DNA from: Botryllus schlosseri
Taxonomy: Eukaryota
Reading direction: 5' to 3'
Length of the DNA: 64,000 bases
Assembly (NCBI GenBank): GCA_051294905.1
Contig: CM119378.1
Span: 10,230,001 to 10,294,000, forward strand
The notes below the pieces were generated by a model that did not search any database, was not told the origin of the DNA, and was given only the letters and a program-made list of their open reading frames with translations. The translations under genes were made by a program, and so were the position numbers. Below are positions 5,195-47,550 of the stretch, in pieces. Position 1 is the first letter of the stretch. Each line of letters starts with the position of its first letter.

Positions 5195-5208
5195 AGTTCC
5201 CCCTTCCT
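5195..5208 (-). promoter_or_regulatory. Polypurine tract
   Basis: Minus strand reads AGGAAGGGGGAACT immediately before the 3' LTR. Confidence 0.8.
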
Positions 5209-5811
5209 ACCAAAAGAACTTGGTGTAAAAAAAAAACGAATATATTGGTCAATATCTCATACCTAGGGTCATACGACATATGGACGGGGCTAATCATAGG
5301 GACTGAAGCTAATCCTAGGGATTGAAGTTAATCTTAGGGATTGGAGACAGGAAACGATTTTATATGCAGGGGCAAAAGTAAACTAATGAAACATACCATC
5401 CAAGCGTGGCATTCGGAAACCCTATTTTACATCACCACCTCGGAACGACTCGCAATATCATCGTTCCGTCCTACTGGCTACTGAAACTCAGAGCAACAAT
5501 AGTTAACGTTCAAACAAAACAAAGAAATAAAAGACATAATTCAACCAGCACAAAAGCGTTACAACCGTGACATTAAAGATCACTTCGCATGCAATCAACA
5601 AGTTGATGAAAATGTATAATAAAGAGCAACAAAAACTAGAAAATGCAATGCAATTCATAGACGAAACCAGTCTATATGCACTGACGAAAGTCATCAACGT
5701 GTATGCAAGGTCAACACCATAATTCCTTCAGCAATCATGCTTCAAAACCCACAGAACATGCTATTCACTGTCATTCACTTACTTCTTCTACTTTCTCATT
5801 ATTACTGTCAA

Positions 5812-7932
5812 CATAGGCGCCGACTTTTATTTTTTTACGAGGTGGCGAATGCTTGTGACGTCATAATTGTTCCGTGTCGATGACGTCATCGTCGCACTAA
5901 AACGCACTTTCCTACACGCCGCTGGTGTGACTGTGCAGTGCAGACTGCAGAGTACCAATCACTGATTGATTGATTGATCAGCGTTAACCATTTGCGTTTT
6001 ACGTTAAGTTTTAATATCGACTCTGCACTCATTATTATCAAACCATGCAGTCAAGTTATTAAGTGGAATCTTAAAACGGTACGATCATTCGTCCGACGAT
6101 GTATACGATGCATTCCATCAGGCGGAATGCATCGAACAGAAATCAGAATTTACGTCAGAATTTGAAGTTGCATCAATGTTATCAACGAGCAATGCGTCGT
6201 GTGAGTAACGAAATACACCACGCACTGGACTGGCAAGTTCGCAAGTAACACACGACAACTCTCGAATATGAGGTTTTCAAACCGACAATAATGATGATTA
6301 CAAAGTAAAATCGCGCAGCTAATCAGCAATTGTCTCGTGCGGTTTCTGGCTTCGCATTGAGAAGCTCGCATCGCGGCAATTGTTTGCAGATTAAAACAGG
6401 GATTTTGGCGGCATTGGGGCATTTCCCGATTTACGCTCGCTAAGAATTTTTGGAGTACATCCAGGCGCGAAGCCAGGGGTTTCGGGGGTCGAAAGCCCCT
6501 CCTTAAACGCGAAACCCTGCCCTTTTCAAATGAGCGCTCTGACTGTAATACTCGGTTGCAATTCAGTCGTATTATCAGTGTTACGCGCGGCCAATTAACG
6601 AAAGCCGTGTCGACAATAAGCGAGATTCGTCATTCGTCCGTACGCATTGCACTGCACAATGTAACGCGACACGGTCTCCCGCTGGGATAATTGCGGAATT
6701 AGGTCATTCACTGCCCCGCGCTCGGCAGTTGTTGGTAGCCTGATTTATCGCGTCACCTACATGCCTAATTCCACTGGCTTGAATAATCGCATCTGCAATA
6801 GGCCCGGTGCGCACGATATCATCGTTGGCTTACAAAATCGCATCTGCATTGGCTTGGTGCACACGAGATCATCACTGGCCAACACAATCGCATCTGCAAT
6901 AGGCTTAGTACGAAAGATATCGCTAGCCAAACTACCGCGTCTCGGGCCTACCATGCTTTGGCTCCTACTTTCCGATGGCGATAGCTTGGATAAAATGCCG
7001 TTAAGTGTATGCTGATTAGCGATTGTGGTTAAAGAGTGACTTCGCGAGACTGAATGACATCGAATGTCCGCAAACATGTGCGGCGCGTGCGTACATGCGT
7101 AATTGATTTCCGCTAATACTTGAACATAATCATCAGAAGCTGTCATAAGGCTTGAGTTATAAAAGAGGAAAGGTTTGAACCACCTGAAATCGGCGTCATT
7201 GTAGCACATATTCCAAATAAACTCGTACATTTTGACTTGCGCAAATCGTCGCCAACGCTACATAAGACGTAGGACGCATTGATAAGCGCGCGTATTTAAT
7301 TGTTCACGACCGATCAGGGAGTCGCTAATTAACAGCACTTGCGGACTCGTCGACAAGCTTATCATACGAGTATCATCACGATGATATCGTTCACACCAGG
7401 CAGAAGCCGCCAATGCAGATGCGATTGCGCAGACAAGCGATGATATAGTTTGAACTGGGCCTATTGCAGATGCGATTGTTCAAGCCAGCGAAATCAGGCT
7501 TGTTCGAGATGCGATAAATCAGGCTGGCGACGATTGCCACGCACACCGCAATGACTGAACTAATTTCGCGACCATCGCAGCGGGATATCATCACAGACTC
7601 TTCGCGCTGATTGAAAACTTGCCTCTCGCAAATAGGCCGCACGGAACAACGATAACACAATTACTGAATATTGGAGTTAAAATGGTCATTTCAAAATGAC
7701 GGGCTTTCGCGTTTCAAACAGGGGGATTCGAACCCCCTGGCTACGCGCATGGTACACGCGCGTATAAATAACGAAGACGTCTCTAAGGATGTCGCATCGA
7801 TTCGCCTGATTACTAATTACTGGTCACAAACAACTTGGGCGTTTGAGCATTTCGTACGAGGTGGCCGCCACCTCGTGAATATGGTGACGAGGTGGCTGCG
7901 CCACCTCGTAACCTCGTAAGTCGGCGCCTATG
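5812..7932. mobile_element. Non-autonomous hAT-type element
   Basis: Perfect 15-bp TIR CATAGGCGCCGACTT. Perfect 8-bp TSD ACTGTCAA (5804-5811, 7933-7940). Subterminal ACGAGGTGGC repeats. Confidence 0.9.
6462..7751. mobile_element. Foldback/TIR element nested in the hAT element
   Basis: CAGGCGCGAAGCCAGGGG matches the reverse complement of ...CCCCCTGGCTACGCGCATG. Long imperfect inverted arms (6680-6900 vs 7400-7590) carry AATCGCATCTGCAAT repeats. No clean TSD found. Confidence 0.6.
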
Positions 7933-8367
7933 ACTGTCAACCCGTCCAGCGGGAACAGCAACCATTCCTACCAAATCCGTGTTGTCCGTTCCGCGTCTAC
8001 GTAACAACAGAGGGCTTATGGCAATCCGATAACCATTCTACAGCGACCATCTCCAAATAAGACGCACCGTTCCGTGACCACAACCGGGCCTACACGAGAC
8101 TAACATTTTGGTACAAGTGAAGTAAAAACCGTAACGAATGACGGGATGTAATGGGAACACTGAGTGTAGGTATTGAAGTGTTGCACTATATACGTGAAAA
8201 TGTTGCACATGAATGGGAAATTAGAGGGTGCATTGAGTAGTACGACCCATATGGAACAGGTGTATTATAAGCCCTAGGAGGTTAAAACGTGGATTTGCCA
8301 TATCCAGAAATGACGACTGGAGTGGGCGCTTGCGAGCAAACCTTCAAACCTAAAAACGTAACATTTT

Positions 8368-9393
8368 GTGCAGAGGCATGCCGGCAACATTATACGCTCG
8401 GTTAAAAGAGAAATATCATACAAATACGTGTATCTTTGCCGTCTTAATATTACAGAAGCATCGGGAGTACCTCACAACGTTCTGCGCCTGGCCCAATCTG
8501 GAATTCTGCTCAACAATCGGGATTGTATCATGTTCTTGAGGAGTCAGGGATTATTGGCTCAGCAAATGGATTGTCAAAGGTGCACAGCCCCGATGGTCGA
8601 GGAAAGGACGCGTACTATGGATGACGGGTGGAGGTTTTGTTGTCGGGATAAAGACTGCCGCACGACGAGTACTATACGAAAATGGTCACTATTCAACAAC
8701 AGCAAGGTTGGACTCCCTGAATTACTTATAATATCATATTTTTGGGCACATGATAGTGTCCAGAATCACATCTCGCACGAATCCGAAATTAGCCCTCGAT
8801 CAATCGTGGTATGGTCGGGCCATTTGCGACGGGTGTGCGCAGCAGATGTACGACGCCATAAGAAGAAACTGGGAGGCTATCAAAGAACAGTGGTAGTGGA
8901 TGAATCCCATCTAGCTAAGCGCCGCCGTGGCGTGGCTGGAAGCCAGGCCGCTAGAAAGGCTATTTGGGTTGTAGGTGGCACTGACCGGACGACGGGAGAA
9001 ATGTTCGCGGAAATAACGGCAGACAGGACTGCAGAGGTCATGAAACGTATCCTAGTCGAAAATATAGCCAGAGGCTCTACCATAGTGACAGATTGTTACC
9101 CGTCCTACAATGGAATAGAACAGTGGGGCCAGGATTACCAACACAGATCCGTGGATCATTCAATTGGCTTTATTTCTCCATCCTTTATTCATTCTAATGA
9201 CCAGGAGGCACAATGGAGTAGCTTAAAATACCACTTGAGGCGCTCAAGAGGTTTGGCAAGGCATCTCCTGCAAGAGTACGTTGATGAATGGTTATATAAA
9301 CGGCGATATGGCAGGAGTAATGTATTTGCGGCTTTGTTAAAGTCCATACGTGAAGATCCGCGGTTTGACGTGCGGCAAGCTACTAGCACATAG
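8368..9393 (+). CDS. Merlin (IS1595/ISXO2-like) DDE transposase
   Basis: N-terminal CQRC...CCRDKDC zinc finger. Motifs VVVDESHL, IWVVGG, STIVTDCYPSY, HRSVDHS, HSNDQEAQWSSLK, LQEYVDEWLYKRRY. DDE triad intact. True start uncertain: GTG start, possible acceptor at 8454-8455. Confidence 0.92.
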   Translation: MQRHAGNIIRSVKREISYKYVYLCRLNITEASGVPHNVLRLAQSGILLNNRDCIMFLRSQGLLAQQMDCQRCTAPMVEERTRTMDDGWRFCCRDKDCRTTSTIRKWSLFNNSKVGLPELLIISYFWAHDSVQNHISHESEISPRSIVVWSGHLRRVCAADVRRHKKKLGGYQRTVVVDESHLAKRRRGVAGSQAARKAIWVVGGTDRTTGEMFAEITADRTAEVMKRILVENIARGSTIVTDCYPSYNGIEQWGQDYQHRSVDHSIGFISPSFIHSNDQEAQWSSLKYHLRRSRGLARHLLQEYVDEWLYKRRYGRSNVFAALLKSIREDPRFDVRQATST

Positions 9394-9679
9394 AACCGGA
9401 TATCCGGACCTTAATAGGCCAAACCTGCTTGCACAAACAAACACTGGACTGACGTATGACGTCAACTTTTCTCACTTCCCGAAAATATGTCACATATTGC
9501 CTAGTTAGAATGTTTACATCTCATGACTAAACAATTAAATTAACTGATCGATCAAGAATATCTGTAGAACCAAGATGAGACGGGTCTAACCCTGTTCCTA
9601 CTTTTACAGACTGGTAGAATTACATATATTGTCAAATTTGATAATTAATGAATTTTCCTGACGTACCTGTGCCTGCACA

Positions 9680-12070
9680 ATGGTCAGCTTTTCTTTTATT
9701 GGTCATTACGGTTGTATGCTGCTTCATACATCTGCTTTGTTACTGTCTTGGGCGGAAGGAACGACAATATCTGCAAGCAATATAACGACCACATCAAGCA
9801 CCATACCCAACTATGAGGACAGAGCTAGAACAATAACTCAAGCCCAGTTTGGAAAATTACCCAGAGAGTTTCCTAAAGATTGGGCTAAATTGGAGTCGTC
9901 ACCGTGGGAGTTTATTTCGCTAGCAAAGTGCTGGGAACTACGAAACAAAACCCACAATTTTTCAAACCCGGGGATATTTTTCTCATCGACGTTTGGTTAT
10001 GTCAAGGCTGAGAGGGTCACGTTTCAAGAATACATGTATCCAACCGGACATTATTGGGATGACATAAATGCGTTTGAAAACACATGCACATGTAGGCGTC
10101 AAAAGGCATATATCACCCCAGATTTGGACTTAAAAGCCCTGGAGTCAGAGAGAACATATATAGTGCCTACCGGAAATGACTTCCGGTTAGCATGGCGATG
10201 GAAAATCGATGACTCAACCGTAAGGGGGTGGAATCCTCGAGGGCTATTTCAAATAGCCATCATGAAGTACAAACTAAAGGCCTTAAAAATGTTTGCCACA
10301 TATTCAAGTGTTAAAATAAACTGTGTCACCGATACGGTGGCGAATGAAGAAATAATGAAGGAAAGGAATGTCTACAATGATACTTCTACAGATCTGGTAG
10401 ACTGTGTTCGCTTGCTACAAATTCTGCGTTGCACTACCTGCTCTTTTCGCGGATTGGTCATTGCCTATCGACCCCATCCTAACAAGATTATCATTCAGGA
10501 AGAAGACGAAACTAGAAATTCAAGGACGTCATTGAACATTGAAATGGATTTTACTCCGGGTATACACAACTATCACCCTTCTACGCCCGTATGGTCAAAT
10601 GCCATAGTCGGGGACAAACCAACGTTACCAGAAGAGATAGTTTGGGTTTTTCCCTCCTACCCCAACAAGTACGGAACGAACTACAGGGATTCACAGATAC
10701 CTACAAAAATTGCTGGAGGACTGCCGATATACCGGCTGTATCCTTCGTTACTAAAAGAAGATCAACGATGTGTCAGACGAGTACAAGGAAACAAGGCAAT
10801 CTGTAAAGATCCTGTGGGAAGTTTGCATATGAAACTGGCCTATTGGGACCAAGTGATATATGATTCTCAGGCCAATCTAAAAAGATACCCTGGGAAACCG
10901 CTGGTCGTATTAGGAGGTCGCAAAACTGATTTGGAAACTAAGGATCCTAATCTTCCAGGAGGAAAGGGGAGACATAAGAGACTCTTTTTTTCATTGTTTG
11001 TACTGGCTTTTTCAACTATCCTAAGCTTGGCAATCACTTCTAACCTTGAAAGCATGATAAACCGCAACATGGACGACTTGACGTATCAAATGAACGCGAG
11101 ATTTACTAAAATTGAAAGCGATCTGAAAACAGTGGCAGACGGATTGAATGACCTCTCGCTCATAGGAGTAGCTCGAGCTCAAAAGCTCAACGAATTGATT
11201 GTAACTAATCTACGTAAGGGGGCGGTAACTGAGGCAAGACTTCAAACTATCACAAATATGATTTGGAACAACCGAAATATGATAATCTCTCAGGTAGATA
11301 GCCATTTGTCCACAATACAGACCGTTCAAGAAATGTCGATTGCCGAACTTTCCCTTAATCAATTAGTCATGCAACAACTACAGAACCTAACGGCTAAACC
11401 CCTATTCGATAAAAACAAAGCTTATGCCGTACGAATAAAGTCAGGCATCCTAAGCCTACGTGAAATAGCTGAAAAAATTATCAAATTGAAGGATGAATAT
11501 GTAAATGTTTCTCAAAGCCAAGCGTTGAAACTGCAAGCCACGCGGAGAGAAATAGAAGCCATTGACAACCAGGCGGAAGTCGAAATAGAACGTTGGCAAA
11601 AAGAGGTGAACCATAGTGTTTACATCAACACTACAAATTTAGAACATGATAATGTCAGCTTTGCTCATTTGAATCGTATAATCGGGGAAGAGTTCTTTGA
11701 CGATTTCGGCGACGCAGTAAAAAGTGCCGCTAACGGGACTGGTGTAATTTTAAAGTCTTTAGCTTCTGGGGCTTCTGATATTATTTCACAAGGAATCGAG
11801 GGTATTACTGGCATCTTTGGGTCAGGATTGGGGGCCATATTCAAACCCCTCATAACACCAATTATCATCATTGCTGTAATTCTAGTCACGTTATTTCTGA
11901 TTGTTAAATTATACCCAGTTTGTTTTCCAAAAGAGAAGAGATCCAGAAATACTATAAGACAGCGTAACAACAAATCGGAAATGGAAGTTTACGTGACCTT
12001 AATGAATCCATCAAAAACTGCGCGGCGAATTGTAAAGAAACCCGATAGGTTTGGAAATCTCGGCTACTGA
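9680..12070 (+). CDS. env: Envelope-like class I fusion glycoprotein, 796 aa (env1)
   Basis: Signal peptide and Cys-containing ectodomain. Furin site RHKR (10970-10981) is followed by hydrophobic LFFSLFVLAFSTILSLAI, long heptad repeats, a Gly-rich membrane-proximal segment, TM IIIIAVILVTLFLIV and a basic tail. Several N-X-S/T sites. Confidence 0.8.
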   Translation: MVSFSFIGHYGCMLLHTSALLLSWAEGTTISASNITTTSSTIPNYEDRARTITQAQFGKLPREFPKDWAKLESSPWEFISLAKCWELRNKTHNFSNPGIFFSSTFGYVKAERVTFQEYMYPTGHYWDDINAFENTCTCRRQKAYITPDLDLKALESERTYIVPTGNDFRLAWRWKIDDSTVRGWNPRGLFQIAIMKYKLKALKMFATYSSVKINCVTDTVANEEIMKERNVYNDTSTDLVDCVRLLQILRCTTCSFRGLVIAYRPHPNKIIIQEEDETRNSRTSLNIEMDFTPGIHNYHPSTPVWSNAIVGDKPTLPEEIVWVFPSYPNKYGTNYRDSQIPTKIAGGLPIYRLYPSLLKEDQRCVRRVQGNKAICKDPVGSLHMKLAYWDQVIYDSQANLKRYPGKPLVVLGGRKTDLETKDPNLPGGKGRHKRLFFSLFVLAFSTILSLAITSNLESMINRNMDDLTYQMNARFTKIESDLKTVADGLNDLSLIGVARAQKLNELIVTNLRKGAVTEARLQTITNMIWNNRNMIISQVDSHLSTIQTVQEMSIAELSLNQLVMQQLQNLTAKPLFDKNKAYAVRIKSGILSLREIAEKIIKLKDEYVNVSQSQALKLQATRREIEAIDNQAEVEIERWQKEVNHSVYINTTNLEHDNVSFAHLNRIIGEEFFDDFGDAVKSAANGTGVILKSLASGASDIISQGIEGITGIFGSGLGAIFKPLITPIIIIAVILVTLFLIVKLYPVCFPKEKRSRNTIRQRNNKSEMEVYVTLMNPSKTARRIVKKPDRFGNLGY

Positions 12071-13183: not shown

Positions 13184-16100
13184 ATGCCAAATTTCCTATG
13201 GGCATTGCTGCTGTGCTGTGTTGGTGTGATAAATCATGCGTATGCATCGGAACTACTCCCTTTGTCAGCTGTAAATTCGGAGCCAGTGGTGGAATTTAAT
13301 CACTCAGGATGGAATCGAGTTAGTGAGTTTGTAGGTATTAAACGAGTGCCGTTAAGTCAGATTTTCCCAAAAATTGGAATTGACTGGTCACGCGCAAATG
13401 GACGTTATCCCGTGTATGCTAATACAATAGAATTTGGTGCCGTAAAGGCCCCCTCACAAAGGTTGTTCAGAATCCTGTCTCCAAGAGCCGGCAAATATTG
13501 GCGATCTCCAAAACAATTTGAGAGGGAATGCTTATGTGTCCGAAATAATTCAAAAATATTACCAGAATTGACGCCCGGAAGCATAAAACAGAACATAACA
13601 TACCGACGTGGTACTGGTGTTGATCTAATACATGTCTGGCGATGGGTGATAGGCGAAGATGAACTCCCTATATCATTTACTACCCTACGAATACTGACGG
13701 TCTATAAGGCGTTGGTCATCCACTTTCTAAGCCAATACCTAGAGGTGAATGCCTACTGCTCAAGGCCCAGTCCAACGGGAGGAAACTCACGTTGGAAGAT
13801 TAGGGAAAACGGGTTCACTTATTGTGATAATAGGGGCAGACGAACCCGTAGAATTATTTGTACGCGTTGTAGAATCACTGGTAGTCGGGGAATTGCAAAT
13901 CTAGCTCACAGGAACTTTGTCGTTCATGAAAAAAGTAGGCAACAAACCACTCTAAGAATCCTATGGCCCGACGATATTCCTATGCCTACTCTGAATAAAC
14001 ACATAGTATGGCTACAGACGAGAGGGGTGAATTACAGGGTCGGCTCGCCGATACTGGAAAACCTGAACTTGAGAGTTTATAGATCATTTCCGGCGTTGGG
14101 AAAAAATAGCCCCTTTTGTCTGAGGAAACTTCAAAAACCGGAATGCGAATCTCCTGTTGGCAGTTTTGATACCGCGCTTGCGTTTGACTCGGTCTCTTAC
14201 GATGTGGCGGGAAATCAGCCCATATACCCAAATTTTAATGAAGCCATAATTCATCCGCTAAGAGCTGATATCCGAGTTTCATGCTCACGACCTCGGCCAG
14301 ACAGATATTTTATGATATGGTCACCGTTCAAGGATCAAATAAGCAAATCACTGCATGGACTAAGCCATGTTTTGCAAGTAACTGCCTCAAGGTATCTCGC
14401 TGAGGCCAAACTGCTACTCAGACAGATGGCAGCTCCCATGAAAATTTTAAGAAATGAACTATTACGATTACAGGACAAATATGCAACTACCAATGAAGTA
14501 AATAGGTTTCAGAACAGTGTCAATCAAACTCGACATAGGATAGGACGAAATCTTAACCGACAAGTGTTGGATTTACTGATGAGTGCGACAGCCGCAAATC
14601 TATTATTGAATGCCAAAATGGCAAACCTTACGCGTTTTGACCCCAATACAGTTTACAAAGCAGTAATTTGTCGAGGGGCCCTAATTTATTCAGTTTACGG
14701 GTATCGTAAAAATGAGAGCAATCCCCATACCTCTAGTCCACAGACAACAGATCTGGTGACCGAAATTGTCACTCACAGCCCAGCAAATACCCCTATAATC
14801 GCTACCAGATCTACAAAAATGCATGTAGAGACTTACGATGAAGCCCAGTCTACCTACGAACCTACCCTCATTGCCTCTAAAATCTCTCAGTCTCACAGTA
14901 ATGGTAATATCGCAACGACAAAGGTGACTCCGGATGGGGGCCAAATTCAGAAAAGTACCACCCGTACATCCGAGATGTCCACAATTACTAGTGGATATAA
15001 GCCCTACTCTCCTGCTATCCAGCATGAACTGATCATCTCTGACTCAAGAGCCGCGAAATATATTACTAATAGTGCTAGCGAAACACCCGATAATATTCAG
15101 TGGCTCGACTATGTAAGAAATGACACCGCCCGTGCTATAGTTACGTCTGAAAAACCCACAACTATTAATGCGAGCATGTCTAAATCTGGTTCCGTTACGC
15201 GCAGAAACGTTGGTAGAAGTAGCATAGCGTATACTCGCACAAAAAATGCGTCTGGTATTGATATCGGCTTGACTTCAAATACAAGTGAAACAGTATCATC
15301 GGTTGTGACCGACCCTACTTCTGGATTCCCGTCTTTATCAAAAACTGTTATGGACAAGACGGCTGCTGACCCTTTGACTTGGCCCACGAATACCTTTTCA
15401 CCCACGGAAATGGTGAAACTAGGTAGTCTGTCAACTCGGCACTCCGGAACAAAACCCATGACCAATATTAGGAATATACTTAATCCATAAACCACACCTA
15501 GCATTCGAACTTCTAAAGTAGACTCTACAGTCGCAACCATAAGATCTGAAAACTCCGCAGGGGAAATCCAATCGATGGTAACACCCCCTGGACGGGCAGC
15601 TGTTACTAATTCGAATAATAATACGCTGGCCACCTCAATAAGCACAAGTGTGGAAGACACTACATCGTACTTTCCAAATGAAAATAGTGACAGTGGACAT
15701 ATAGTGCAAGTAAATATATCCGCAAGAACCTTAAGTAACAACACGTTTGAGCAGGTACAGAACTTGATGCAGAAACTCTACCGAACAACTACAGCGGCGA
15801 TGTTATTATCAAGCAAATTACACTCGAACGCGTCCCCGCGAGAATCAGCTACTAGTACCCAGCCTAAATCGGCAAATAACATCACCAGCGAATCATTTGG
15901 GTATGAGACAACCGACCCTTTGGAAAAGCTGAATAGCCGAAATTTACGAACGGAGGCCGCAGGTAAGACTTTGAATATTTACAAAATACGCAACAATACC
16001 CCACCAGCATGGGTTAACAAAGTGCCTTCCGGTCTATTAAATAGGAAACAAACGAAAGATGATGAAATTATTATGCCCAGGTCAACTACAATGTCAGTGT

Positions 16101-25013: not shown

Positions 25014-25045
25014 AACCACCACCACCACCACCACCACCACCACCA
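25014..25045. repeat. (CCA)n microsatellite
   Basis: About ten ACC/CCA units; explains the poly-P/W/V stretches in the ORF track. Confidence 0.9.
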
Positions 25046-25560
25046 CCGAAGCAGAACATCCACAAAACATTGACGACGGCATTGAAAGAGTCTGACGTCG
25101 TTTGGGCTCATAGGGTGATGTTCGGATGTCCCCGTAAAGGCTCTCAAGCATACATTGATAGGATCGCCTGCTTGCCACAGTTGTAAGATACACAGAAATG
25201 AAGCAGTGCGAATAAATGCGTCGGTACAGGTCCATGAAGTCGATGAACTGATGGACCAAACCAGAACAGTATTCGAGATATATTGAATTTGAAATCTCGC
25301 TACTACAGAGCCCCGCACGAACCCCCGTATCCTGATGGAATTCCCTGTCCCCGAGTATGACACGAAAGAATTTGAAGAAACGACTCAACAAGAAATCAAT
25401 GCCTCAACTGAAAATGGGTATATACATATACACCTGCAATCTGCAAAGACTGTGATACTTTTATGAATGAACTGGTGATCTGCCAATTGGTTGGCTTGGA
25501 CTCTGAGTGTTGGTACTTTTGTGGGCATCTACTGGCATATCACTTGCATATTATGTATCT

Positions 25561-25960
25561 GGCAGGAAAGGCCATCACGTCTATTGTGAAAACAAACCTT
25601 GGAGAATTATTTTGATTTTAGATCGTGCATGATGATAAATAGGTTAACTTTTGGTTTTTTATCAGTATGTGTAATGTGCATAGAGAAGCCCTATTGTTAT
25701 CTGCACGACCTTATTGGAGTATTTGGTTGTATTAAGGTTATAGGCTACCGTATAAGAGTTATAATAGTCATCTGGGCCTTGAACGGTCATTGCGATAGCT
25801 GCTGCAATTACAAAGACTTCAATCAAAGATCGACTGCGCCGAAAAGAGTGGGGGTCACACAAAGACATACATCAAGTGAACTTTTGCATCCGCTGAGGTA
25901 TATGAACTCAGTGTAGGTTACTTGGAGGCCACAAAGACCTCAAGCTGCACTATAAACTAC
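25561..25960 (+). repeat. LTR-like segment (R/U5) of gag-pol copy 1; left boundary undefined
   Basis: Homologous to the reverse complement of 47868-48302 (GGCAGGAAAGGCC, AAACCTTGGAG, GAGTATTTGGTTGTATTAAG, AGCTGCACT). Ends directly before a PBS. Confidence 0.65.
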
Positions 25961-25975
25961 TGGAGGTCCCAACCG
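25961..25975 (+). promoter_or_regulatory. Primer-binding site, tRNA-Gln-like
   Basis: TGGAGGTCCCA(A)CCG compared with the complement of the tRNA-Gln(UUG) 3' end, TGGAGGTCCCACCG. Confidence 0.65.
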
Positions 25976-26039
25976 TTCCTCAGCGGCGTCAAAAGTAACT
26001 ATCTGTGCTCCACGCGCACAAGAAGGGAGCTGGAAGCTC

Positions 26040-26207
26040 ATGCGACCCGATCACGGCATTGTTCGAACTCTATCATTCATCACCTTCATCTCGGTACTGA
26101 TCACGCTGTTTGCCAGACTGAACTCTATCTACGTGCGGCTATTTGCATCTGATTTAGGGATCGGTACTACGAACAAGCGGTTCTCTAACAAGATCGCCCG
26201 TCAATAG
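26040..26207 (+). CDS. Small hydrophobic ORF upstream of gag (55 aa; not in the ORF track)
   Basis: MRPDHGIVRTLSFITFISVLITLFARLNSIYVRLFASDLG... Same position as, and similar to, 47551-47820. Confidence 0.55.
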   Translation: MRPDHGIVRTLSFITFISVLITLFARLNSIYVRLFASDLGIGTTNKRFSNKIARQ

Positions 26208-26216
26208 GGAGGCGAG

Positions 26217-29200
26217 ATGAAGAAATTCTTCCGAAAGAAAAAATCGCCGGAGGCGGTTGCTGAGCTTGAGCAGGGTATACAACTGTTCAAAGCTACGCAA
26301 AGGCGTCACGAAAACGTAAGAGACCAGGAGAAAAGACTAACTCAAAGCGTCGCTGAACAGACGAAGCTCCTGCAGGACGTCAAAGCAGTTTTGCCAGTAG
26401 CGGTAAAAGAATTGGACAAAGCCAAAAAAGAGGTTACACAGGCCCAAGCAGATTTGAAAGCAGTCAGCGATGCCACAGCTAAAGTTAGTGGTAAAGTGTC
26501 CACTGATGTACTGAATCAAGTCTTGAAGGCCGAGTTTGAGTTGGGGAGAGAACACACTAGAGCAGTCGGGGATAAGCCCCCCCGACCATCTCCCGCTCTC
26601 GCAATATTACCTGCCACGCTACCACCGTCATACGATCAACAATCTGGACGAGGCACCGATAGGGCGACGCTCCGACCTAAACTCCAGGTTACCAAAGGCC
26701 TAGATTGTCATACAGTAACGGCAGTCTATCCCACTCTACCCGGATCAAAATCTGGAGATATGGTACGTAAGACGGCCCGAATATCATCGGCTCGTCGCAC
26801 CGGAACATCACAACAGGCCGGTCCTGCACTTCGACTGACTACGACGCCCGGCCAGAGACTGTCGGACGCAATGGAACAGATGCGATCGAGGTCCCTGGAC
26901 AGGTGTGAGCGAGACAATATGCCCGCTCCTGCTCCTAAAAATGGCCCTGGATCAGACGCCGAAGTGCGATTTGATGACGATTACCTACCCAGATACACCG
27001 AACCGTCAAGGTTTTTGCAGGCGGGGGTAGCCAGGAATGGCCGGGACAATGTACGACTGACTTTCGACGCGCTAGGAAAGCGTCGGGCGCGTAGTGAACC
27101 TGATGAGACAAGGCATGTGGTTTTCGAAGAAGCTGGCCGGGTCTCCCAAGGAGGAGAGCCAAAATGTGAGGGCCCCTCTCCAAATGACTTGCCACGACAG
27201 CATGAACGCCGACCAGATGAGCTGTTTGACGCGCTTAGGGGTCCAGGTTATTTTGATGAAGATTATGCGCCTTCTCAATTCACAACAGGACCACCTAGAT
27301 TTCAATCTACCCCTGATGACATTGATGGGAGCCCCAATCGCCCACAACGACAATTCGGCGGCCCGTATGAGGAGCTTGTTGGCAACCAAGCTCATGCACA
27401 TACAGTACATGTTGCCGAAAGACCTGCCAGACTTCAGACTGAGAAAGAAATGATGCAGCTCATGATGGACCCTGATGACATGCCGCTCGTCAAATGGATG
27501 GCGAATACAATGGAGCGCATTGAGCATGGGGAGGGTGATACTAACGAGGATATCATATTGTCAAATGCGATGCAGAAAAAGCTGAAACAAGCTGGACGCC
27601 AAAAACAAGCCAGGCAATTGGGAAATTTCTTCAATACCAATTCTGGTAAACCCAGCTGGGAGTCTGTCATGCGATCTCTATCATTGTCCAACCCACAAGG
27701 ATTGGCGAACAATGAGAAAATCATAAATGAGTTTCGAAATAACTACTCCTGGGACGACGAACCACTACCACTGCTCAACAGCACGCTAAAGCAGCTTGAA
27801 ATTAATATGGGTGATTGTATCACGAAAAGTCCGGATGGACTGCGCCTCTTCAGACACTTACGACGTCAACTCCCTCAGGCCCTTAGGATCTTAATCCGTG
27901 GGTATGAATATGGCTCTTGGAGAAATGTGGCTGAGGAATTGCAGATGTTCTGGAACACGGAATTTTTGGATGATCAAGAAGAGGGAAGATTCCCCCAGAA
28001 AGACAAACATAACAATAAGCGAAAAAATACTGATGCTATATCACCCCTACCACCAGTGCATATCTATAATGTGCAACCGGCGGGGCAGATAATGCCGAGT
28101 TATCCTACTCGACCAGTGCAAGCTGGTGCTGCGCCTACCATGATAAGTTCAGCCCCACCGCCCCCTCCACCACCCATGCCTGCCGGCAGGCCTCCCCAAT
28201 CTGCGCAAGCAACTGGACGTCAGCAATACTCGGCACAAAATCGTAATCCGCTGCCGCGACGAAATCCGGGTCGTACAGCCAAAACAAACCGTTTTCCTAA
28301 TGCCGTGATGGCTGGTGGAAACCCCTATCGAAGGAGTGCTGCACCCGGGAGGCAGACGGGATCGAGGGTCCTAGGAAGGTCGGGAAGACAGCCCGACGCG
28401 AGCAGAAACAACGGCCAGCGTCCACGAAACTCTCAAAACGTACGAACGACTCCGGGAATGCCAGCATCAGACCAGAGGGGACGCGGCCTACCGCAGACTC
28501 AAGATTCGGGCGTCGGGGTGGACCATTCGCAGCTAACGCCGTCCAACAGTCAAGAGGCGAGCCAGATTTCGAACACCCAAGGTGAGAGGTATAATTTCCT
28601 TGGCAACCCTAATATATTTGCGCCATTAGGGTTGTATTTACATCCCTCGCAGGGACAGGCCTTGTCGGTCTGTTATTATTGTAAATCGCCGGGGCATCAA
28701 TCTCGCAATTGCGTGGTAAAATTCATATTGTGGCTGAATGATCAGGTACTGACTAAAGATGATGTATTGGGCTGGATTATAAGAAAACGTGTTCGACCGG
28801 TGCCCGCCCATGTCAAAGAAACAACTGAACAAAATTGGCTTCCCTTTTTGGAGTCTAACCAACTACTGACAATACCCGATTTGGACCGGTATTTTGCGTC
28901 TCAGGGCTCTCCCTCGTTCATTGAGAGAACCACCCTATGTGAGGCTTATTATGACGATAGACCCAAAAATCGTGACAAGACTCATTGGCATAATAGAGAG
29001 CAATGGGGGCCACAAGGACCACCAAATATGGGGGGTCAGCCTGCTAATAATGCTAATACTGTCGCATGGACCCAACCTCAATATACCCCACCCCAATATC
29101 ACGAACCCCATTATCACCAACAATTCCAACCCAGTAATAACCCATACTGGACTGATGAGGAATTGCACCAGGGCTTGGTGCTGGCAAAAAACGCGGCGCT

Positions 29201-29243
29201 TCTTCGATATACGCCCCAGATCGAAACAGTGCTTCACATGTAA
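26217..29243 (+). CDS. gag: Gag polyprotein; the last ~16 codons are contributed by the inserted MITE
   Basis: Polybasic N-terminus, coiled coil, PPSY and YPTL motifs, capsid-like core conserved with copy 2, and CCHC knuckle CYYCKSPGHQSRNC (28671-28712). Confidence 0.85.
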   Translation: MKKFFRKKKSPEAVAELEQGIQLFKATQRRHENVRDQEKRLTQSVAEQTKLLQDVKAVLPVAVKELDKAKKEVTQAQADLKAVSDATAKVSGKVSTDVLNQVLKAEFELGREHTRAVGDKPPRPSPALAILPATLPPSYDQQSGRGTDRATLRPKLQVTKGLDCHTVTAVYPTLPGSKSGDMVRKTARISSARRTGTSQQAGPALRLTTTPGQRLSDAMEQMRSRSLDRCERDNMPAPAPKNGPGSDAEVRFDDDYLPRYTEPSRFLQAGVARNGRDNVRLTFDALGKRRARSEPDETRHVVFEEAGRVSQGGEPKCEGPSPNDLPRQHERRPDELFDALRGPGYFDEDYAPSQFTTGPPRFQSTPDDIDGSPNRPQRQFGGPYEELVGNQAHAHTVHVAERPARLQTEKEMMQLMMDPDDMPLVKWMANTMERIEHGEGDTNEDIILSNAMQKKLKQAGRQKQARQLGNFFNTNSGKPSWESVMRSLSLSNPQGLANNEKIINEFRNNYSWDDEPLPLLNSTLKQLEINMGDCITKSPDGLRLFRHLRRQLPQALRILIRGYEYGSWRNVAEELQMFWNTEFLDDQEEGRFPQKDKHNNKRKNTDAISPLPPVHIYNVQPAGQIMPSYPTRPVQAGAAPTMISSAPPPPPPPMPAGRPPQSAQATGRQQYSAQNRNPLPRRNPGRTAKTNRFPNAVMAGGNPYRRSAAPGRQTGSRVLGRSGRQPDASRNNGQRPRNSQNVRTTPGMPASDQRGRGLPQTQDSGVGVDHSQLTPSNSQEASQISNTQGERYNFLGNPNIFAPLGLYLHPSQGQALSVCYYCKSPGHQSRNCVVKFILWLNDQVLTKDDVLGWIIRKRVRPVPAHVKETTEQNWLPFLESNQLLTIPDLDRYFASQGSPSFIERTTLCEAYYDDRPKNRDKTHWHNREQWGPQGPPNMGGQPANNANTVAWTQPQYTPPQYHEPHYHQQFQPSNNPYWTDEELHQGLVLAKNAALLRYTPQIETVLHM
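29186..29192 (+). promoter_or_regulatory. -1 ribosomal frameshift slippery site A AAA AAC
   Basis: After removing the MITE, gag reads LAKNAWGR* and pol continues in the -1 frame as KKRLGALMDPVNQ. Confidence 0.75.
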
Positions 29244-30075
29244 CCAGCAAGTGTTTCCCATGAACACGATCAAATTTTATAAACGTCAAAATAAATTGTT
29301 TTTTGCCTGTGGAGAGACGGATATTAGGGTTGGATGTGGGTTAGGCATATCAGGGTTGGGGGTAGGTGGATATTAGGGTTGTGTTAGGGTATTCCGGGGG
29401 AAGGGGGTTATTAGGGTTGGAGGTGGGTTAGGGTCAAAGTTGGTGTTAGGGTATCCCAAGATTAGGGTTGGGGATATTATGGTCGGGAGAGTGTGGAATA
29501 TCGTGTCCTGCACTCCAAACCTATTCTTGGGTTACCCTTACCCTAACACAGCTCTAGCCCCAACCCAGCTCTAACCATAACTCTAAACCCATCCCCTAAC
29601 CCTAATATCCCCCCTCCCCAACCCTAATATCCCTATTTCCTAACCCTAACACAGCTCTAACCCTAACTCTAAACCCATCCCTTAAACCTAATATCCCCCC
29701 TCCCCAACCCTAATATCCCCCTCTCCTCCAACCCTAATATCCCCATTTCCTAACCCTAACACAGCTCTAACCCTAACCCTAATTACCCCCTCTCCTCCAA
29801 CCCTAATATCCCCCTTTCCCAACCCTAATATCCATCATTCCTCGAACCCTAATATCCCCCCTCTCCAACTCTAATATCCCCCTCTACTCAACCCTAAAAT
29901 CCACCCTCCCCAGTCCTAATATCCCCCTCTCCTCCAACCATAATACCCCCCTTCCACAACAAAGACAAAAAACAATTTATTTTGACGTTTATAAATTTTA
30001 TTGTGTTCATGTGAAACATTTGTTGGTGTCATGGGGAGCACTGTTTCGATCTGGGGCGTATATCGAAGAAGCGCC
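29195..30075. mobile_element. Merlin-type MITE filled with telomere-like repeats
   Basis: Perfect 39-bp TIR GGCGCTTCTTCGATATACGCCCCAGATCGAAACAGTGCT, imperfect to ~125 bp. 8-bp TSD AAAAACGC (29187-29194, 30076-30083). Degenerate TTAGGG array in the left arm and CCCTAA array in the right arm. Confidence 0.85.
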
Positions 30076-30083
30076 AAAAACGC

Positions 30084-33000
30084 TTGGGGGCGCTGATGGA
30101 TCCGGTAAATCAGTTGCCCGATTTAGTGTTACCCCATTATACGAAAACTATACATAACTCTGAATTACCCATATTTACCTTTTTTGATTTGCCGGACAAA
30201 ATGCCGCAACCCGATTTTAGGGACTTATTTGGCGGACAATTATTGTATTTTACAGACACAAAAACAGGTACACAATTTCTTGCGGATACAGGAAGTGTTC
30301 CTAACCTGATAACCCAAGATGCCGTTAAAGCTACCTACCCAGAAAGCTGGACTGAAAGACAACCACTCGATATGAAATTACGCGGCATAGGAGGATCATC
30401 CAGTGTCGACTTTGTCGTCATCATCAAGCTGGACAACCTACCGGTTCCGTTTGCAACTGGTGAAGGAGTCCCGTTAAACATTATCGGACTGAAATGGATT
30501 GAGCAAGTTCAACGGCTACCCTCAGTAGCGACAGAATTGAAGGATCCCACTACAGTGAATTATGAACTATCATTGTCCGTGTATTCGGACACGGCAAAAA
30601 CCATAGCTGGGAGCAGTACTTGCAACGCTGCTACTGGTGATGGGTCGGTGGAAGCTGCAACGTTACATAGCGTCGAGACTGGAAGCCCAGCTGGCGCCCC
30701 TCGGGACCATAGATGTCCCTGTCTCTCGGAAGGATTTTGCGCCAAGTGTGGAGAAACCACGGATACAAAATTAAGTCGGGTGAGCGCTGTGACCCCGAAA
30801 TCCTTACGTGCTGAGCGCGGAAGCCCCACTAGCACCTCTCAGGAACGACATGTTCAAGAGATTCCTGAAAACTACGGCCACTGCATTCGCCACGATAGAA
30901 GAGTGGGAATCGTTCACGACGGCTCCATGGCCGCAGCAGTTGTGCCGCAAACCGAGAAGATAGCATTGAAAGCAGCTGTCGACATCCACACTACAAATTT
31001 TGTGGATGGAGAAGAGTCTGGAGGCCATATGCACGCCTCTCCAGAAAAAGGGCCCCCGGTGGGCGTTGAAACCGCCGGCGTGAAGTTGGATGCGGGCACG
31101 CAGCCCCTTCAGAGGCAGAAAAAATCGAGTGTGGAAGCCCCACTGATTACTGATACCCTCGCTCTCTCTCCACCGGCATCAAAACCGCGCCACGGCCTCT
31201 ATAGACATGGTCGTGGCCCGATAAAAACGTATGAACTGTATGATGGAACTGATAAGAAAGTGAAGACAGAGTTGGAACGGCTATGCAGCCAAGCGGTTGA
31301 ACTTGCCAAATCTGCATATAAACCTCCAGACCTCACATGTCCGGATAATACAATTATACCGGACCAGGTTTGGAGAGAGATTTACGAGCCGTACGCGAAC
31401 GAACTTGAAGACCTGCGAGGTCATCTCAAAGCTCCACAAGTTATGGATTATAAATGTGACATTGAACTTAAGGACCCCTCTACCAAACCATTTGTGTCAG
31501 GTCCGTATAACCTGAAGGGGAAGGACCAGGCTAAGGCATTGCAAGAAGCCGTAGAAAACTTCCTGGATTTGGGAGTCATTGAACAGGGGTTTGCCCAATG
31601 GAAACTGGCCATTTTCGTGGTACCCCAGAAAATGAATGAACGGCAAAAACAAGAGGACGGATGGAAACAAGCGTGGAGAGTTGTACAAAATCTTCAACCA
31701 TTGAACGCTGCCATCAAGTCTATAGAAGTTCCCCCTCCCCTTGTACCTGACGTAAAGCAGCACGCGCAAGGGCGAGAGGTACTTTCCCTGCTGGACTTGA
31801 AGAAGGCCTATTTCCACATGGATATGACGGAAAGGTCTAAGCAGTATGTAGGCATTGCTGTGAAGGGAATGCATATACGATGGCGCAAGATGCCGATGGG
31901 GCTCCGCATTTCGCTGGCGTTTTGGATGTCCAATATGCAGAAATGCGTGGTCACGCCTATCACAGAGAGTTACCGGAAGTGCATGAAAGAACATGGTCGT
32001 ATGGACGAAGCTACAGCGACGCCCATCGAGGCCTACATCGATGATATATTTCTAAGTACGAAGACAGTCGACGATCACCTGGTGCTATTACGACTGGTGT
32101 TTGAACAACTGGCTAACATGAAACTGACTGTAAGCATCAATAAGTGTTTCTTTGGTAAACGGCGGGTAAACCTGCTGGGTGCAACCGTAACGGGTAAGGA
32201 AATCGAAGTTCAGCCCGAACGAGTGCGAGCACTCAAAGAACTTGCGCCACCCCACAATATTTACGAACTCCGGGGGTGGATTGGTGCACTTCGATATATC
32301 TCAGAACATATACCGGAGTTGAGCCTAAAACTGGCTAAATTTGACGCTCTCACTGGAAAAGTTCCAGCGACTCAGGGCAGAATAACACCGTTACTATGGA
32401 CTAAAGAATTGCTACATGATTTCAAGACAGCGCAAGCCTTGCTAAACGATACAAGGGTGCTGTATCATCTCAACCCAGATCTTCCCTTGTATGTCGAAAC
32501 AGATGCATCTGATGTGGGTTTTGGCTCGGTGATATTTCAAACAGAAGTGGGATGTACCCCACCATTCGACAAGGTGTACACTATCGCTTTTTACAGCCAA
32601 AAATGGACTACACCCACGGCGAAAGTGTACGACCCCTGTACAAAAGAACTAAAGGCTCTGAAGGATTCTGTGGAAAAATGGCAATCGATGTTACGCGCAC
32701 TACCGTTCACGATCATCACAGACAACATGGGCGTGTTTGGGCTGTTGAAAAGAATGACAGACAATGCCAAGAACCCAAGCCCTAAACCACTGATTCAACG
32801 GTGGCTCAATCAGTTATCGGGTTTTCAAATCGAAAAGGTGATACACTTGAGTACCTCACAAGTGTTTACCTCCGACGGCCTTTCCCGCTCTTACTGGATG
32901 GAGATGGCTGCGGGAGAAGATGACCCCGGAGTATGGACGGCTCGTCCTTCAAGCGAAAACACCGAGGGACACACCATCAACAGCACACGAGATCGCGAAA

Positions 33001-33530
33001 GTGTGCAAAGATTTTTGATACGTCACTGTAGACACGAAGTATGTGATAACAGTGAAAACGGTATTCATCCCTGGGAAAACGTACAACAACTCCTGAAAGA
33101 GAAGCTGGGAAGGGATCTCCCGATGGCCACGCTAAAACGGATCATGCGGGACAGCACCAGAGCGGTAGTCTCGGATAAAGGGTTGGCGGCCGCACAGGGA
33201 CATACCGTGGGAGAACCCCCTCATTATGAACAATATTTAAATAATGACAAATTGTATCATATGACTACACGTACCAGAGCCATACAAATCATGAATAGCG
33301 AACTCAGACGTATGGGTAGGAGGTATGTACACCTCAGCATACAGGAGCCAAGCTATAAATATATTCGGGGAGCAGCTTTAGAAATGGACTCATGCGATCT
33401 CCGAAAACTGGGATTAACTCTATTGCAATCACCCAATTCGGACGTGGTTTTGTGTGAAGGCCCTATCCCAAATGCACATATACGTCTCGCGCACGAAATC
33501 GTGAGTCGAACACGGTCAAACAGCGCATAA
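30084..33530 (+). CDS. pol: Pol: aspartic protease, reverse transcriptase, Ty3/Gypsy-type RNase H and an unknown C-terminal domain; no integrase
   Basis: Protease FLADTGS and IIGLKWI. RT LLDLKKAYFHM, MPMGL, AYIDDIFL, KCFFG. RNase H TDASDVG, KELKAL, ITDN, SDGLSR. No HHCC or DDE motif downstream. Confidence 0.92.
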   Translation: MGALMDPVNQLPDLVLPHYTKTIHNSELPIFTFFDLPDKMPQPDFRDLFGGQLLYFTDTKTGTQFLADTGSVPNLITQDAVKATYPESWTERQPLDMKLRGIGGSSSVDFVVIIKLDNLPVPFATGEGVPLNIIGLKWIEQVQRLPSVATELKDPTTVNYELSLSVYSDTAKTIAGSSTCNAATGDGSVEAATLHSVETGSPAGAPRDHRCPCLSEGFCAKCGETTDTKLSRVSAVTPKSLRAERGSPTSTSQERHVQEIPENYGHCIRHDRRVGIVHDGSMAAAVVPQTEKIALKAAVDIHTTNFVDGEESGGHMHASPEKGPPVGVETAGVKLDAGTQPLQRQKKSSVEAPLITDTLALSPPASKPRHGLYRHGRGPIKTYELYDGTDKKVKTELERLCSQAVELAKSAYKPPDLTCPDNTIIPDQVWREIYEPYANELEDLRGHLKAPQVMDYKCDIELKDPSTKPFVSGPYNLKGKDQAKALQEAVENFLDLGVIEQGFAQWKLAIFVVPQKMNERQKQEDGWKQAWRVVQNLQPLNAAIKSIEVPPPLVPDVKQHAQGREVLSLLDLKKAYFHMDMTERSKQYVGIAVKGMHIRWRKMPMGLRISLAFWMSNMQKCVVTPITESYRKCMKEHGRMDEATATPIEAYIDDIFLSTKTVDDHLVLLRLVFEQLANMKLTVSINKCFFGKRRVNLLGATVTGKEIEVQPERVRALKELAPPHNIYELRGWIGALRYISEHIPELSLKLAKFDALTGKVPATQGRITPLLWTKELLHDFKTAQALLNDTRVLYHLNPDLPLYVETDASDVGFGSVIFQTEVGCTPPFDKVYTIAFYSQKWTTPTAKVYDPCTKELKALKDSVEKWQSMLRALPFTIITDNMGVFGLLKRMTDNAKNPSPKPLIQRWLNQLSGFQIEKVIHLSTSQVFTSDGLSRSYWMEMAAGEDDPGVWTARPSSENTEGHTINSTRDRESVQRFLIRHCRHEVCDNSENGIHPWENVQQLLKEKLGRDLPMATLKRIMRDSTRAVVSDKGLAAAQGHTVGEPPHYEQYLNNDKLYHMTTRTRAIQIMNSELRRMGRRYVHLSIQEPSYKYIRGAALEMDSCDLRKLGLTLLQSPNSDVVLCEGPIPNAHIRLAHEIVSRTRSNSA

Positions 33531-33995
33531 AGTCATGTACAGAAAGACACGTAAAAAATAAAATAAAAAAAAATAAAAAAAAAAAATATTTTTTTTTTGT
33601 TTAAACCTGCGTTAAATGGTTACTAATAGTACCGTGAAAAGTGGTTGTTTGTTGCATTTGATTCTATATGGAATTCATGTATTATAAGCCCTAATATGTA
33701 TACGTAATTTCGATGTTCATGGGGAAACATTTAAGATTAGATAAAAGATACATGTGAAACACTAAATAGATAGTGAATCACATGTACGAGTAAAGGACGG
33801 CGTCTGGTACAGGAGTTCCAACATTTTGATGTTAGCATTTATTACTACAACGCATACTTCAGCAATGAGCTTCGGTGACCCCACCTTACATTCTACAACG
33901 GGGAGTCACAACATGATGCAGCAATCCTGCATTTACACAGCGTATTAATGCACAAGGCACAATTTTCCATCACGCGTATCTATATTCTACGCGAT

Positions 33996-47537: not shown

Positions 47538-47550
47538 AGTAGCCTACTCT

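Follow-up and report, generated by a model that had tools for sequence, protein, structure and literature searches.

Ty3/Gypsy elements (Metaviridae) and errantiviruses carry a gag with a CCHC knuckle, a pol with protease, reverse transcriptase and RNase H (PR-RT-RH, with an RT_RNaseH-type domain), a primer-binding site (PBS) and an env-like open reading frame (ORF), together with an integrase, a terminal pair of long terminal repeats (LTRs) and a target-site duplication (TSD) of 4-6 bp. Caulimoviridae, the plant pararetroviruses, combine an integrase-less PR-RT-RH with tRNA priming, a circular template, a terminally redundant RNA and a movement protein. Here we describe an element of Botryllus schlosseri in which retrovirus-like genes are joined to the transposase and ends of a Merlin DNA transposon. 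It lies in a 64,000-nt stretch (the window; C8:10,230,001-10,294,000) of the 495-Mb assembly that we searched. With Ty3/Gypsy elements it shares the gag zinc knuckle, the PR-RT-RH order, a PBS-like site before gag and an env-like ORF, but it has no integrase, no terminal LTR pair, an 8-bp TSD, a Tpt1 domain at the C terminus of Pol, two env genes that usually lie ahead of gag, and an RT that forms a long-stem clade of its own. With Caulimoviridae it shares the integrase-less PR-RT-RH; tRNA priming, a circular template and redundant RNA are only proposed here. It differs from them in its animal host (with a chordate-type spliced leader, SL), its envelope-type genes, the lack of a movement-protein domain, a transposase with TSDs, a genome 2-5 times larger, and a terminal redundancy that apparently comes from the SL.

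Three further systems are close to the element in other respects. Merlin transposons (Merlin/IS1595, IS1016 group) are defined by GG termini and 8-9-bp TSDs, and have terminal inverted repeats (TIRs) of 24-462 bp, highly imperfect TIRs being reported once, according to the accessible part of the Merlin paper (PMC8101967). The element resembles them in its DDE_Tnp_IS1595 domain with an intact D-D-E triad, its 5'-GG termini and its 8-bp TSD. An ordinary Merlin is a single transposase gene without a retro module, and the same part of that paper mentions reverse transcriptase nowhere (PMC8101967); in contrast, the element described here measures 14-45 kb, holds gag, PR-RT-RH-Tpt1, two env-like genes and an internal LTR-like unit, often has two transposases, and ends in an inverted motif of only ~15 bp. 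The closest precedent for a transposase-virus fusion is Teratorn, a teleost piggyBac-alloherpesvirus fusion in which a virus-like genome is mobilised by a cut-and-paste transposase with TIRs and TSDs, and for which excision to a circle has likewise been proposed in the excerpts available (PMC5601938, PMC10175614). In the excerpted review, Teratorn ranks as the first case of a cut-and-paste transposon fused with a DNA virus, and no RT counterpart is named in that excerpt (PMC10175614). Here, by comparison, the partner is a reverse-transcribing element with a candidate PBS for tRNA priming, and the transposase is Merlin. Finally, DIRS and other tyrosine recombinase (YR) elements resemble the element in a Gag-RT-RH without DDE integrase, in a circular intermediate (proposed here) with a borrowed enzyme, and in an extra C-terminal domain of Pol; they use a tyrosine recombinase, leave no TSD and carry a methyltransferase, whereas the present element has a DDE transposase, 8-bp TSDs, a PBS, env genes and Tpt1 (PMC3266345, as excerpted).

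All modules belong to one mobile unit, and the whole 14-45 kb unit was inserted with Merlin-type GG...CC ends and 8-bp TSDs. The features of the window copy are as follows.

8102-8109, no strand: left TSD, AACATTTT, identical to 33820-33827
8110-8361, + strand: left end, with 5'-GG, an imperfect terminal inverted motif of ~15 bp and a subterminal region common to all copies of the subfamily
8362-9393, + strand: Merlin/IS1595-type DDE transposase (PF12762, E 1.4e-10), a stop-to-stop frame with its first ATG at 8530
9680-12070, + strand: env1, with a signal-like N terminus, a furin-like RHKR at 431, a hydrophobic peptide, long helices and a C-terminal transmembrane (TM) segment
13184-16939, + strand: env2, a paralogue of the N-terminal half of env1 with an S/T-rich mucin-like stalk and a TM segment; candidate attachment glycoprotein
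16940-23684, + strand: ORF-poor region, where other subfamilies have strings of same-strand accessory ORFs (IAP, E2, LRR)
23685-23700, + strand: polypurine-tract (PPT) candidate, weak, kept in 4/4 deleted copies
23701-25712, + strand: candidate U3, placed from the PPT candidate and R, kept in 4/4 deleted copies, with an RNA 3'-end peak over its distal part
25713-25736, + strand: host SL 24-mer, candidate R; 5' ends of SL mRNAs map to its start, poly(A) to its terminal AG
25737-25960, + strand: candidate U5, placed by its position from R to PBS
25961-25971, + strand: PBS candidate, 11 nt in common with the first 11 of the 18-nt tRNA-Gln(TTG)-complementary site of a distant relative
26040-26207, + strand: short ORF (sORF) of 55 aa with one hydrophobic helix
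26217-29243, + strand: gag-like ORF whose last codons enter an inserted repeat, with an N-terminal coiled coil, one CCHC knuckle and a conserved helical core
30015-33530, + strand: pol, with an aspartic-protease motif, RT (~31665-32189), RNase H (~32397-32825) and Tpt1/KptA (~33072-33371)
33531-33819, + strand: right end, with an A-rich tract, a subterminal region, an imperfect inverted motif and a CC-3' terminus
33820-33827, no strand: right TSD, AACATTTT, identical to 8102-8109

The window copy thus runs from GG at 8110 to CC at 33819, with AACATTTT duplicated on both sides. When pieces of the window were searched against the genome, similarity to other copies began at ~8105, and the LTR-type element that hosts this copy picked up again at 33820. 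A preliminary description of the stretch had placed the ends at 5233 and 33550, next to a duplication of GTAAAAAA. Those letters are present, but they do not mark the ends; we regard their duplication as a coincidence, because 5233 lies inside the hosting LTR element and 33551 inside the A-rich 3' tract of the element itself. The same description had begun the gene series with a secreted ORF, which we remove: the + strand ORFs at 6361-7015 lie in a separate 2.1-kb repeat (5812-7932) and show no hydrophobic peak. The remainder of its + strand series (Merlin transposase, env1, env2, non-coding DNA, sORF, gag, pol) agrees with our ORF and domain calls, with ~9 kb of ORF-poor DNA between env2 and the sORF. 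So do its single internal LTR-like segment with a PBS, which corresponds to the SL 24-mer and PBS-like site ahead of gag, and its pol without an integrase or a following 3' LTR.

The same ends recur throughout the genome. In the window subfamily, all 11 end-paired copies have a perfect 8-bp TSD, each duplication different, at the equivalents of 8110 and 33819. Other subfamilies with the transposase first (RT 54-78% identical) gave a perfect 8-bp TSD in 15 of 18 end pairs, and no TSD was found in the other three; among the five copies with the order pol-transposase-env and both ends, the 8-bp TSD is perfect in four and matches at 7/8 positions in the other. With all subfamilies pooled, the TSD is perfect in 30/34 end-paired genomic copies. 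The termini are GG...CC across subfamilies, except for one copy with AG at its left end, and the imperfect inverted motif of ~15 bp falls below the TIR range of Merlin. End-defined copies measure 14 to ~45 kb. Neither terminal direct repeats nor terminal LTRs bound the element in the copies examined, and none of these copies has an integrase and 3' LTR. We also observed a 56-bp segment with a near-palindrome near the right ends of both gene-order types (L016:3790-3845 and L054:5051-5105), with unrelated flanks.

Protein searches of the genome returned at least 66 pol, at least 56 env1 and at least 135 transposase-like matches, and the 101 longest of the 135 transposase matches were mapped. The modules occur together across the genome: a same-strand transposase is found no farther than 50 kb from 59 of the 66 pol matches and no farther than 5 kb from 55 of the 56 env1 matches. 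A second copy, 95% identical to that in the window, has the same module order over its full length. About a dozen deleted copies of 12 kb have the ends of the window copy; they occur on many chromosomes, with precise common ends and breakpoints and with TSDs. The four examined have all lost transposase, env and RT core, and all keep the ends, the segment 21089-25793 (~4.7 kb), the PPT candidate, the SL and the PBS.

At seven loci the order is gag-pol-transposase-env1, with ~190 nt from the pol match to the transposase match. These pol-first units measure 38-44 kb, their left end lying before the non-coding region and their right end ~500 nt after env2; for the copy at C1:8.88M, no left end was found in the stretches fetched. 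The two gene orders are circular permutations that differ in the position of the end pair, each with its own ends and TSDs. The un-permuted order gag-pol-transposase-env-env that the preliminary description had derived by joining the ends therefore exists in relatives. At the DNA level, the pol-first order gives no support for a pol-transposase fusion: a stop codon of its own closes pol, and ~190 nt separate the RT-region match from the first conserved transposase sequence. In a quick tree of RT and a FastTree of the transposase, the pol-first order falls in two separate clades: the C1:8.88M copy is sister to the window copy (support 86 for RT, 0.99 for transposase), and the others group with transposase-first copies. 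This suggests that the pol-first order arose by two switches. Two switches are not proven, because modules recombine between copies, which could mimic a second origin, and RT support is only 86; one pair of copies has an RT dS of 0.15 and a transposase dS of 0.52, and the env1 tree differs from the RT tree.

We estimated selection from pairwise NG86 comparisons of intact ORFs with synonymous divergence (dS) of 0.02-1.0. The median ratio of nonsynonymous to synonymous divergence (dN/dS) was 0.10 for RT-RH-Tpt1 (57 pairs, maximum 0.22), 0.11 for the transposase (67 pairs, maximum 0.19) and 0.21 for env1 (15 pairs, maximum 0.29); it counts against these figures that the pairs are not independent and that four broken ORFs were dropped beforehand. 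By this measure, RT, env1 and transposase are under purifying selection. Together with the invariant catalytic residues described below, this argues that the retro module is not decaying cargo.

The D-D-E triad is present in 21/21 aligned transposases. Within the transposase frame, an AG resembling a splice acceptor lies at 8454-8455, and an acceptor-like site occurs in 9/10 of the copies listed. A second transposase clade, located upstream of gag (L049, L085, L091), has its triad intact; the most diverged subfamilies have a first transposase that is related to this clade. A profile of the gag core matched no capsid. In pol, a domain search found no rve integrase; instead, a predicted Tpt1/KptA domain (PF01885, E 5.6e-7) occupies the C terminus in the integrase position, and the element terminates 270-495 nt beyond the pol stop. 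The same search of the window proteins returned neither a YR domain nor a movement-protein domain. The YxDD motif, the RNase H carboxylates and the Arg-His-Arg-Arg positions of Tpt1 are invariant in 21/21 genomic copies. This tetrad defines the Tpt1/KptA/TRPT1 RNA 2'-phosphotransferases in the excerpt available (PMC6333775); its last two Arg were aligned to a solved Tpt1, and the first two positions were set by the RH motif. The domain also keeps the GH, H-x-T and VHLS motifs. Tetrad and motifs are thus common to the known enzymes and the predicted domain, which differs in being fused to a retroelement Pol.

The anatomy of env1 matches that of a class I fusion protein: a signal, a furin-like site, a fusion peptide, heptad helices (one of ~100 residues plus a second long helix) and a TM segment. 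It has 41 outside homologues. Its weak matches are to a HERV-K chain (E 0.0098) and coronavirus spike (E 0.027 and 0.0035), and the Atlas clusters nearest to it by language model are spike, F and HA at 0.88-0.89, which is below the reliable score and serves as a lead only. Superposition on HIV gp41 gave Z 10.2 with a root-mean-square deviation of 6.5 over 129 aligned residues, a score that unrelated helices equal, and neither env1 nor its N-terminal domain (pLDDT 86.7) had a clear counterpart in fold searches (best Z 3.3). Since env2 repeats the N-terminal domain of env1 and adds a mucin-like stalk and a TM segment, the simplest reading is that the two would form a fusion-plus-attachment pair. 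In the window copy, an in-frame stop at 15488-15490 splits env2. A stop in the mucin-like stalk occurs in several subfamilies (also in L093 and L100) and is absent from others; it may be decay or a switch between soluble and membrane isoforms.

The 24-mer at 25713-25736 is the 'Chordata 1' SL consensus, as given in the excerpt of PMC3795323, minus its first G. Of 20 copies examined, 19 have it ahead of gag, with 0-2 mismatches; the one miss, a compact copy at C13:16.46M, lacks the entire SL/PBS region. Among nine representatives of the main subfamilies the 24-mer is identical, and their 24-nt flanks are 28-32% alike. We rejected the possibility that it belongs to an SL-RNA gene, because GT follows in only 7/19 copies and the flanks are unrelated. 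A PBS-like site starting with TGG precedes gag in all 19 SL-bearing copies, against a background of 0.025 per 60 nt. In 17 of them it lies 191-243 nt downstream of the SL, typically at ~230 nt; in the other two it is farther, at 672 nt (a close copy with a 448-nt insertion) and 393 nt (the distant relative). Its sequence alternates, with at least four types. The type found in the most distant relative, of 18 nt, is complementary to the 3' end of a tRNA-Gln(TTG) gene, a call that ARAGORN made for 4/5 matching loci; the remaining types are presumably Thr- and Ile-like, three pattern scans of viral contigs having come back empty without confirming them. ARAGORN found no tRNA in the fetched genomic loci of the family. 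Two further observations concern the SL. Micro-duplications of its last 4-11 nt stand directly behind it at L049, L085 and L059, differ between close copies, and may be a footprint of SL-U5 joining. An SL-like 24-mer also lies directly ahead of ORF1/ORF2 of a long interspersed nuclear element (LINE) inserted in one copy (C16:20610102).

We mapped public sequencing runs, including two raw RNA runs (one bulk, one single-cell), onto 14001-34000; among public runs recorded as RNA, none contained the stretch searched. In the bulk run, 1941 reads start at 25713 behind the template-switch adaptor and diverge after ~25743 into many unrelated sequences. These are host trans-spliced mRNAs. In the single-cell run, a + strand 3'-type peak covers 25340-26006 (mean depth 1627), and poly(A) stands directly behind 25736 in 194 reads, at a position where 0/19 copies have a genomic A-run. 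These reads appear to extend upstream into the element rather than to be leader-plus-tail artefacts, because no matching loose end at 25713 was found among the positions listed. By analogy, poly(A) at the AG of the SL is the pattern of Ciona operons, in which poly(A) is placed directly behind the trans-splice acceptor AG, mostly without AATAAA (PMC1488885, in the part available).

Outside the genome, RT-RH-Tpt1 proteins without integrase are found in three clusters (1, 31 and 215 members; 38-46% identical) and on two short metagenome contigs; a tree places them and the genomic copies together in one clade (support 1.0). When metagenome and viral contigs were scanned with single proteins, there was no match. 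A profile scan yielded the two contigs as close relatives among 60 loci; both are <5 kb, too short to show a transposase. Outside matches to the transposase (79%) and to env1 (51%) both list one 7067-nt contig, which suggests that the two share it. The RT forms its own long-stem clade (support 1.0) in a tree with few outgroups that does not resolve its deep placement against Ty3/Gypsy; among solved structures, the RT profile best matched 8r0s (E 1.5e-34), which we take to be a caulimovirus RT, and then Ty3 (2e-27). Within the genome, a distant Pol-Tpt1 relative at C3:28648001-28698000 (C3:28.65-28.70M) has a G-patch protease, an extra 235-aa ORF after pol, env1, SL, the 18-nt tRNA-Gln PBS and gag, in the wrap-around order pol-env-ORFs-SL-PBS-gag. 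The array is scrambled, contains 100% identical inverted duplications and shows no transposase match in 50 kb. An assembly artefact may explain this locus, as may the accidental integration of a transposase-free, ancestor-type form.

We think it fairly probable that these copies represent an enveloped reverse-transcribing element in which a Merlin (IS1595-family) DDE transposase replaces the integrase and which cycles through a one-LTR circle. The transposase would free an integrated copy as a circle, with its right end joined to its left, restoring the order LTR-PBS-gag-pol-transposase-env-env-LTR. A template for RT must contain both termini of one LTR, and the integrated form has a single internal copy; therefore, only end joining would give U3-SL-U5-PBS-gag-pol-transposase-env-env-U3-SL. 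One bacterial insertion sequence of the IS1595 family does form a circle that inverse PCR can detect, according to the excerpt available (PMC12561309). On the circle, the host SL would serve as R, and the AG with which the encoded SL ends would act like an ascidian operon boundary, a step for which the poly(A) at the AG provides partial evidence. The first pass would supply a 5' SL, by trans-splicing or by initiation at the SL, and the second pass a poly(A) 3' end; a boundary acting on both passes would thus yield a terminally redundant SL...SL RNA. Reverse transcription, primed by a tRNA inside Gag particles and with strand transfer through the SL, would rebuild the circle, whose end-to-end junction the transposase would cut to insert the copy. 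Env1 (fusion type) and Env2 (attachment type) might let the element spread from cell to cell. Rare relocation of the junction on the circle would account for the two permuted gene orders, and a host leader re-copied in each round would account for the exact conservation of the SL, as could selection alone. More speculatively, Tpt1 might remove the 2'-phosphate or branch remnant of trans-splicing, or cap 5'-phosphate ends. The preliminary description had likewise proposed a one-LTR circle opened and integrated by the transposase; the ends and TSDs bear out the insertion, un-permuted relatives exist, and the circle itself was not observed.

Several observations weigh against this model. A genomic RNA of 25-45 kb would be very large for a retroelement. 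The reads that start at the SL are host mRNAs and therefore do not prove that element RNA starts there; a G>A at 25579 in 6054/6058 reads assigns the poly(A) reads to other copies, probably the deleted ones; and both raw RNA runs have zero depth over gag and RT core (26007-28007 and 31343-32009). No end-to-end junction, circle or full-length RNA was seen, in a mapped stretch (14001-34000) that could not hold both ends, and no loose read end at 33819 appeared among the positions listed. Other subfamilies do not clearly conserve the PPT candidate, the window copy matches the PBS over no more than 11 nt, and a search of viral contigs with four PBS-derived tRNA patterns came back empty for three. 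Many copies hold a second Merlin transposase, whose role the model does not explain.

The element could instead be a giant cut-and-paste Merlin transposon that moves as DNA only, with gag-pol-env as retained cargo, for instance in particles that take excised DNA from cell to cell; the SL would then be a mere 5' leader or 3'-end signal, and the gene orders would have arisen by block translocation. Ends, TSD and DDE domain are all Merlin-like, terminal LTRs are lacking, neither circle nor genomic RNA was seen, and the size fits DNA transposition, by which Teratorn moves 180 kb in the excerpt available (PMC5601938). However, such a transposon would have no need of the ~4.7 kb around SL, PBS and PPT that the deleted copies keep, and both RT and RNase H have intact catalytic sites and evolve under purifying selection. 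The PBS-like sites alternate among tRNA-type sequences at a fixed position, and the SL is identical despite unrelated flanks. We consider movement as DNA only unlikely. A second possibility, to which we give still less credence, is a pararetrovirus-like virus of animals, exogenous or episomal, whose circular form would replicate by reverse transcription with no need of excision, the transposase only depositing latent or dead-end germ-line copies through repeated reinfection. The purifying selection on env1, the outside relatives with RT-RH-Tpt1 and no integrase, the ranking of 8r0s above Ty3, and the C3 relative with its wrap-around order and no transposase nearby all fit such a virus. Against it, the C3 case is one locus that is possibly misassembled, and about a dozen deleted copies share precise ends, breakpoints and TSDs on many chromosomes; their spread therefore needs remobilisation from the genome or helper-dependent cycling. 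Finally, the window is full of nested repeats, and the modules might belong to unrelated neighbours, or to two related elements arranged in tandem or nested, much as the preliminary description had allowed. One TSD pair encloses all modules here and in the 30 of 34 end-paired copies, and the 95% identical copy repeats their order over its full length; the shared ends refute this explanation, which we regard as extremely improbable.

Several repeats surround or interrupt the window copy.

4643-36075, - strand: separate LTR-type element that hosts the copy, with repeats at 4643-5194 and 35524-36075 (552 bp, 98.9% identical)
5812-7932: 2.1-kb repeat, non-coding and high-copy, that contains inverted 177-bp segments and tandem 50-bp units
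29195-30075, no strand: foldback miniature inverted-repeat transposable element (MITE) of 881 bp, unrelated and very high-copy, at the gag-pol junction, with long arms and a CCCTAA-like minisatellite core
44186-55124, - strand: second, degenerate copy, of another subfamily, with its left end at 55124, the SL 24-mer at 48117, a PBS-like site and gag/pol remnants

The preliminary description was right that the block is nested in an LTR element and that the second copy stops near the end of pol; we place this stop on the minus strand at ~44186. The 552-bp repeats are not LTRs of the studied element: they belong to a separate small family that has its own 5-bp TSD and exists without the insert. 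This hosting element is small and non-coding, has unusual ends (TTTAACG...CGTTAAA), a TSD of TCAGT (5 bp), PBS-like and PPT-like sites on its minus strand and many genomic copies, one of which aligns unbroken across 4643-5807 in a genome search. Insertion into an element whose repeats are still 98.9% identical implies that the insertion is young. The MITE interrupts the gag-pol junction of the window copy and is absent from the C2 copy; the non-coding region of the C2 copy (C2:26498000-26506000) holds an inserted non-LTR retrotransposon with a 1506-aa ORF. Larger copies (C10:14432001-14441500, which is L091; L084; L169) carry operon-like series of same-strand accessory ORFs, among them a three-BIR IAP with RING, a ubiquitin-conjugating E2, an LRR-TM protein and ORFs with a PWWP3-like C-terminal domain. 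No right end was found for the second window copy. It is enclosed by 420-bp inverted arms, 96% identical (42383-42804 and 55125-55540), one of which directly adjoins its left end, and a 41-bp tandem array (43830-44180) replaces its right end. Beyond it, 56623-64000 holds a degenerate Polinton/Maverick-like element with a polymerase-like ORF, an A32 ATPase (PF04665) and an rve integrase (PF00665).

Full-text literature searches, whose scope excluded Repbase Reports, subscription journals and supplements, returned no description of such an element. It lacks defining features of Ty3/Gypsy elements, caulimoviruses, DIRS elements and ordinary Merlin transposons, and yet shares part of the workings of each; the proposed mechanism is probable. 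With somewhat better than even confidence, we propose a new class of animal reverse-transcribing enveloped elements (14-45 kb) that would derive from an integrase-less, circular, virus-like lineage (Pol-Tpt1), use a Merlin/IS1595 transposase as integrase and obtain terminal redundancy from SL trans-splicing. Relatives are probably hidden in other genomes, because the absence of terminal LTRs evades LTR finders and the near-absence of a TIR evades TIR finders. The element brings class I and class II transposition together in one unit, in which a DNA transposon's ends and TSD flank retrovirus-like genes and a primer site. Should the circle model be true, the element would be an animal counterpart of the pararetroviruses that has regained active integration from an unrelated DDE family, and Gag-RT elements would have a way to integrate that uses neither retroviral integrase nor tyrosine recombinase. 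It would also bear on how often integrase is lost or replaced among reverse-transcribing viruses and on the upper size of an RT genome. Such a genome would have a host snRNA exon as its R region, tying trans-splicing to retroelement replication and giving Tpt1 a testable role.

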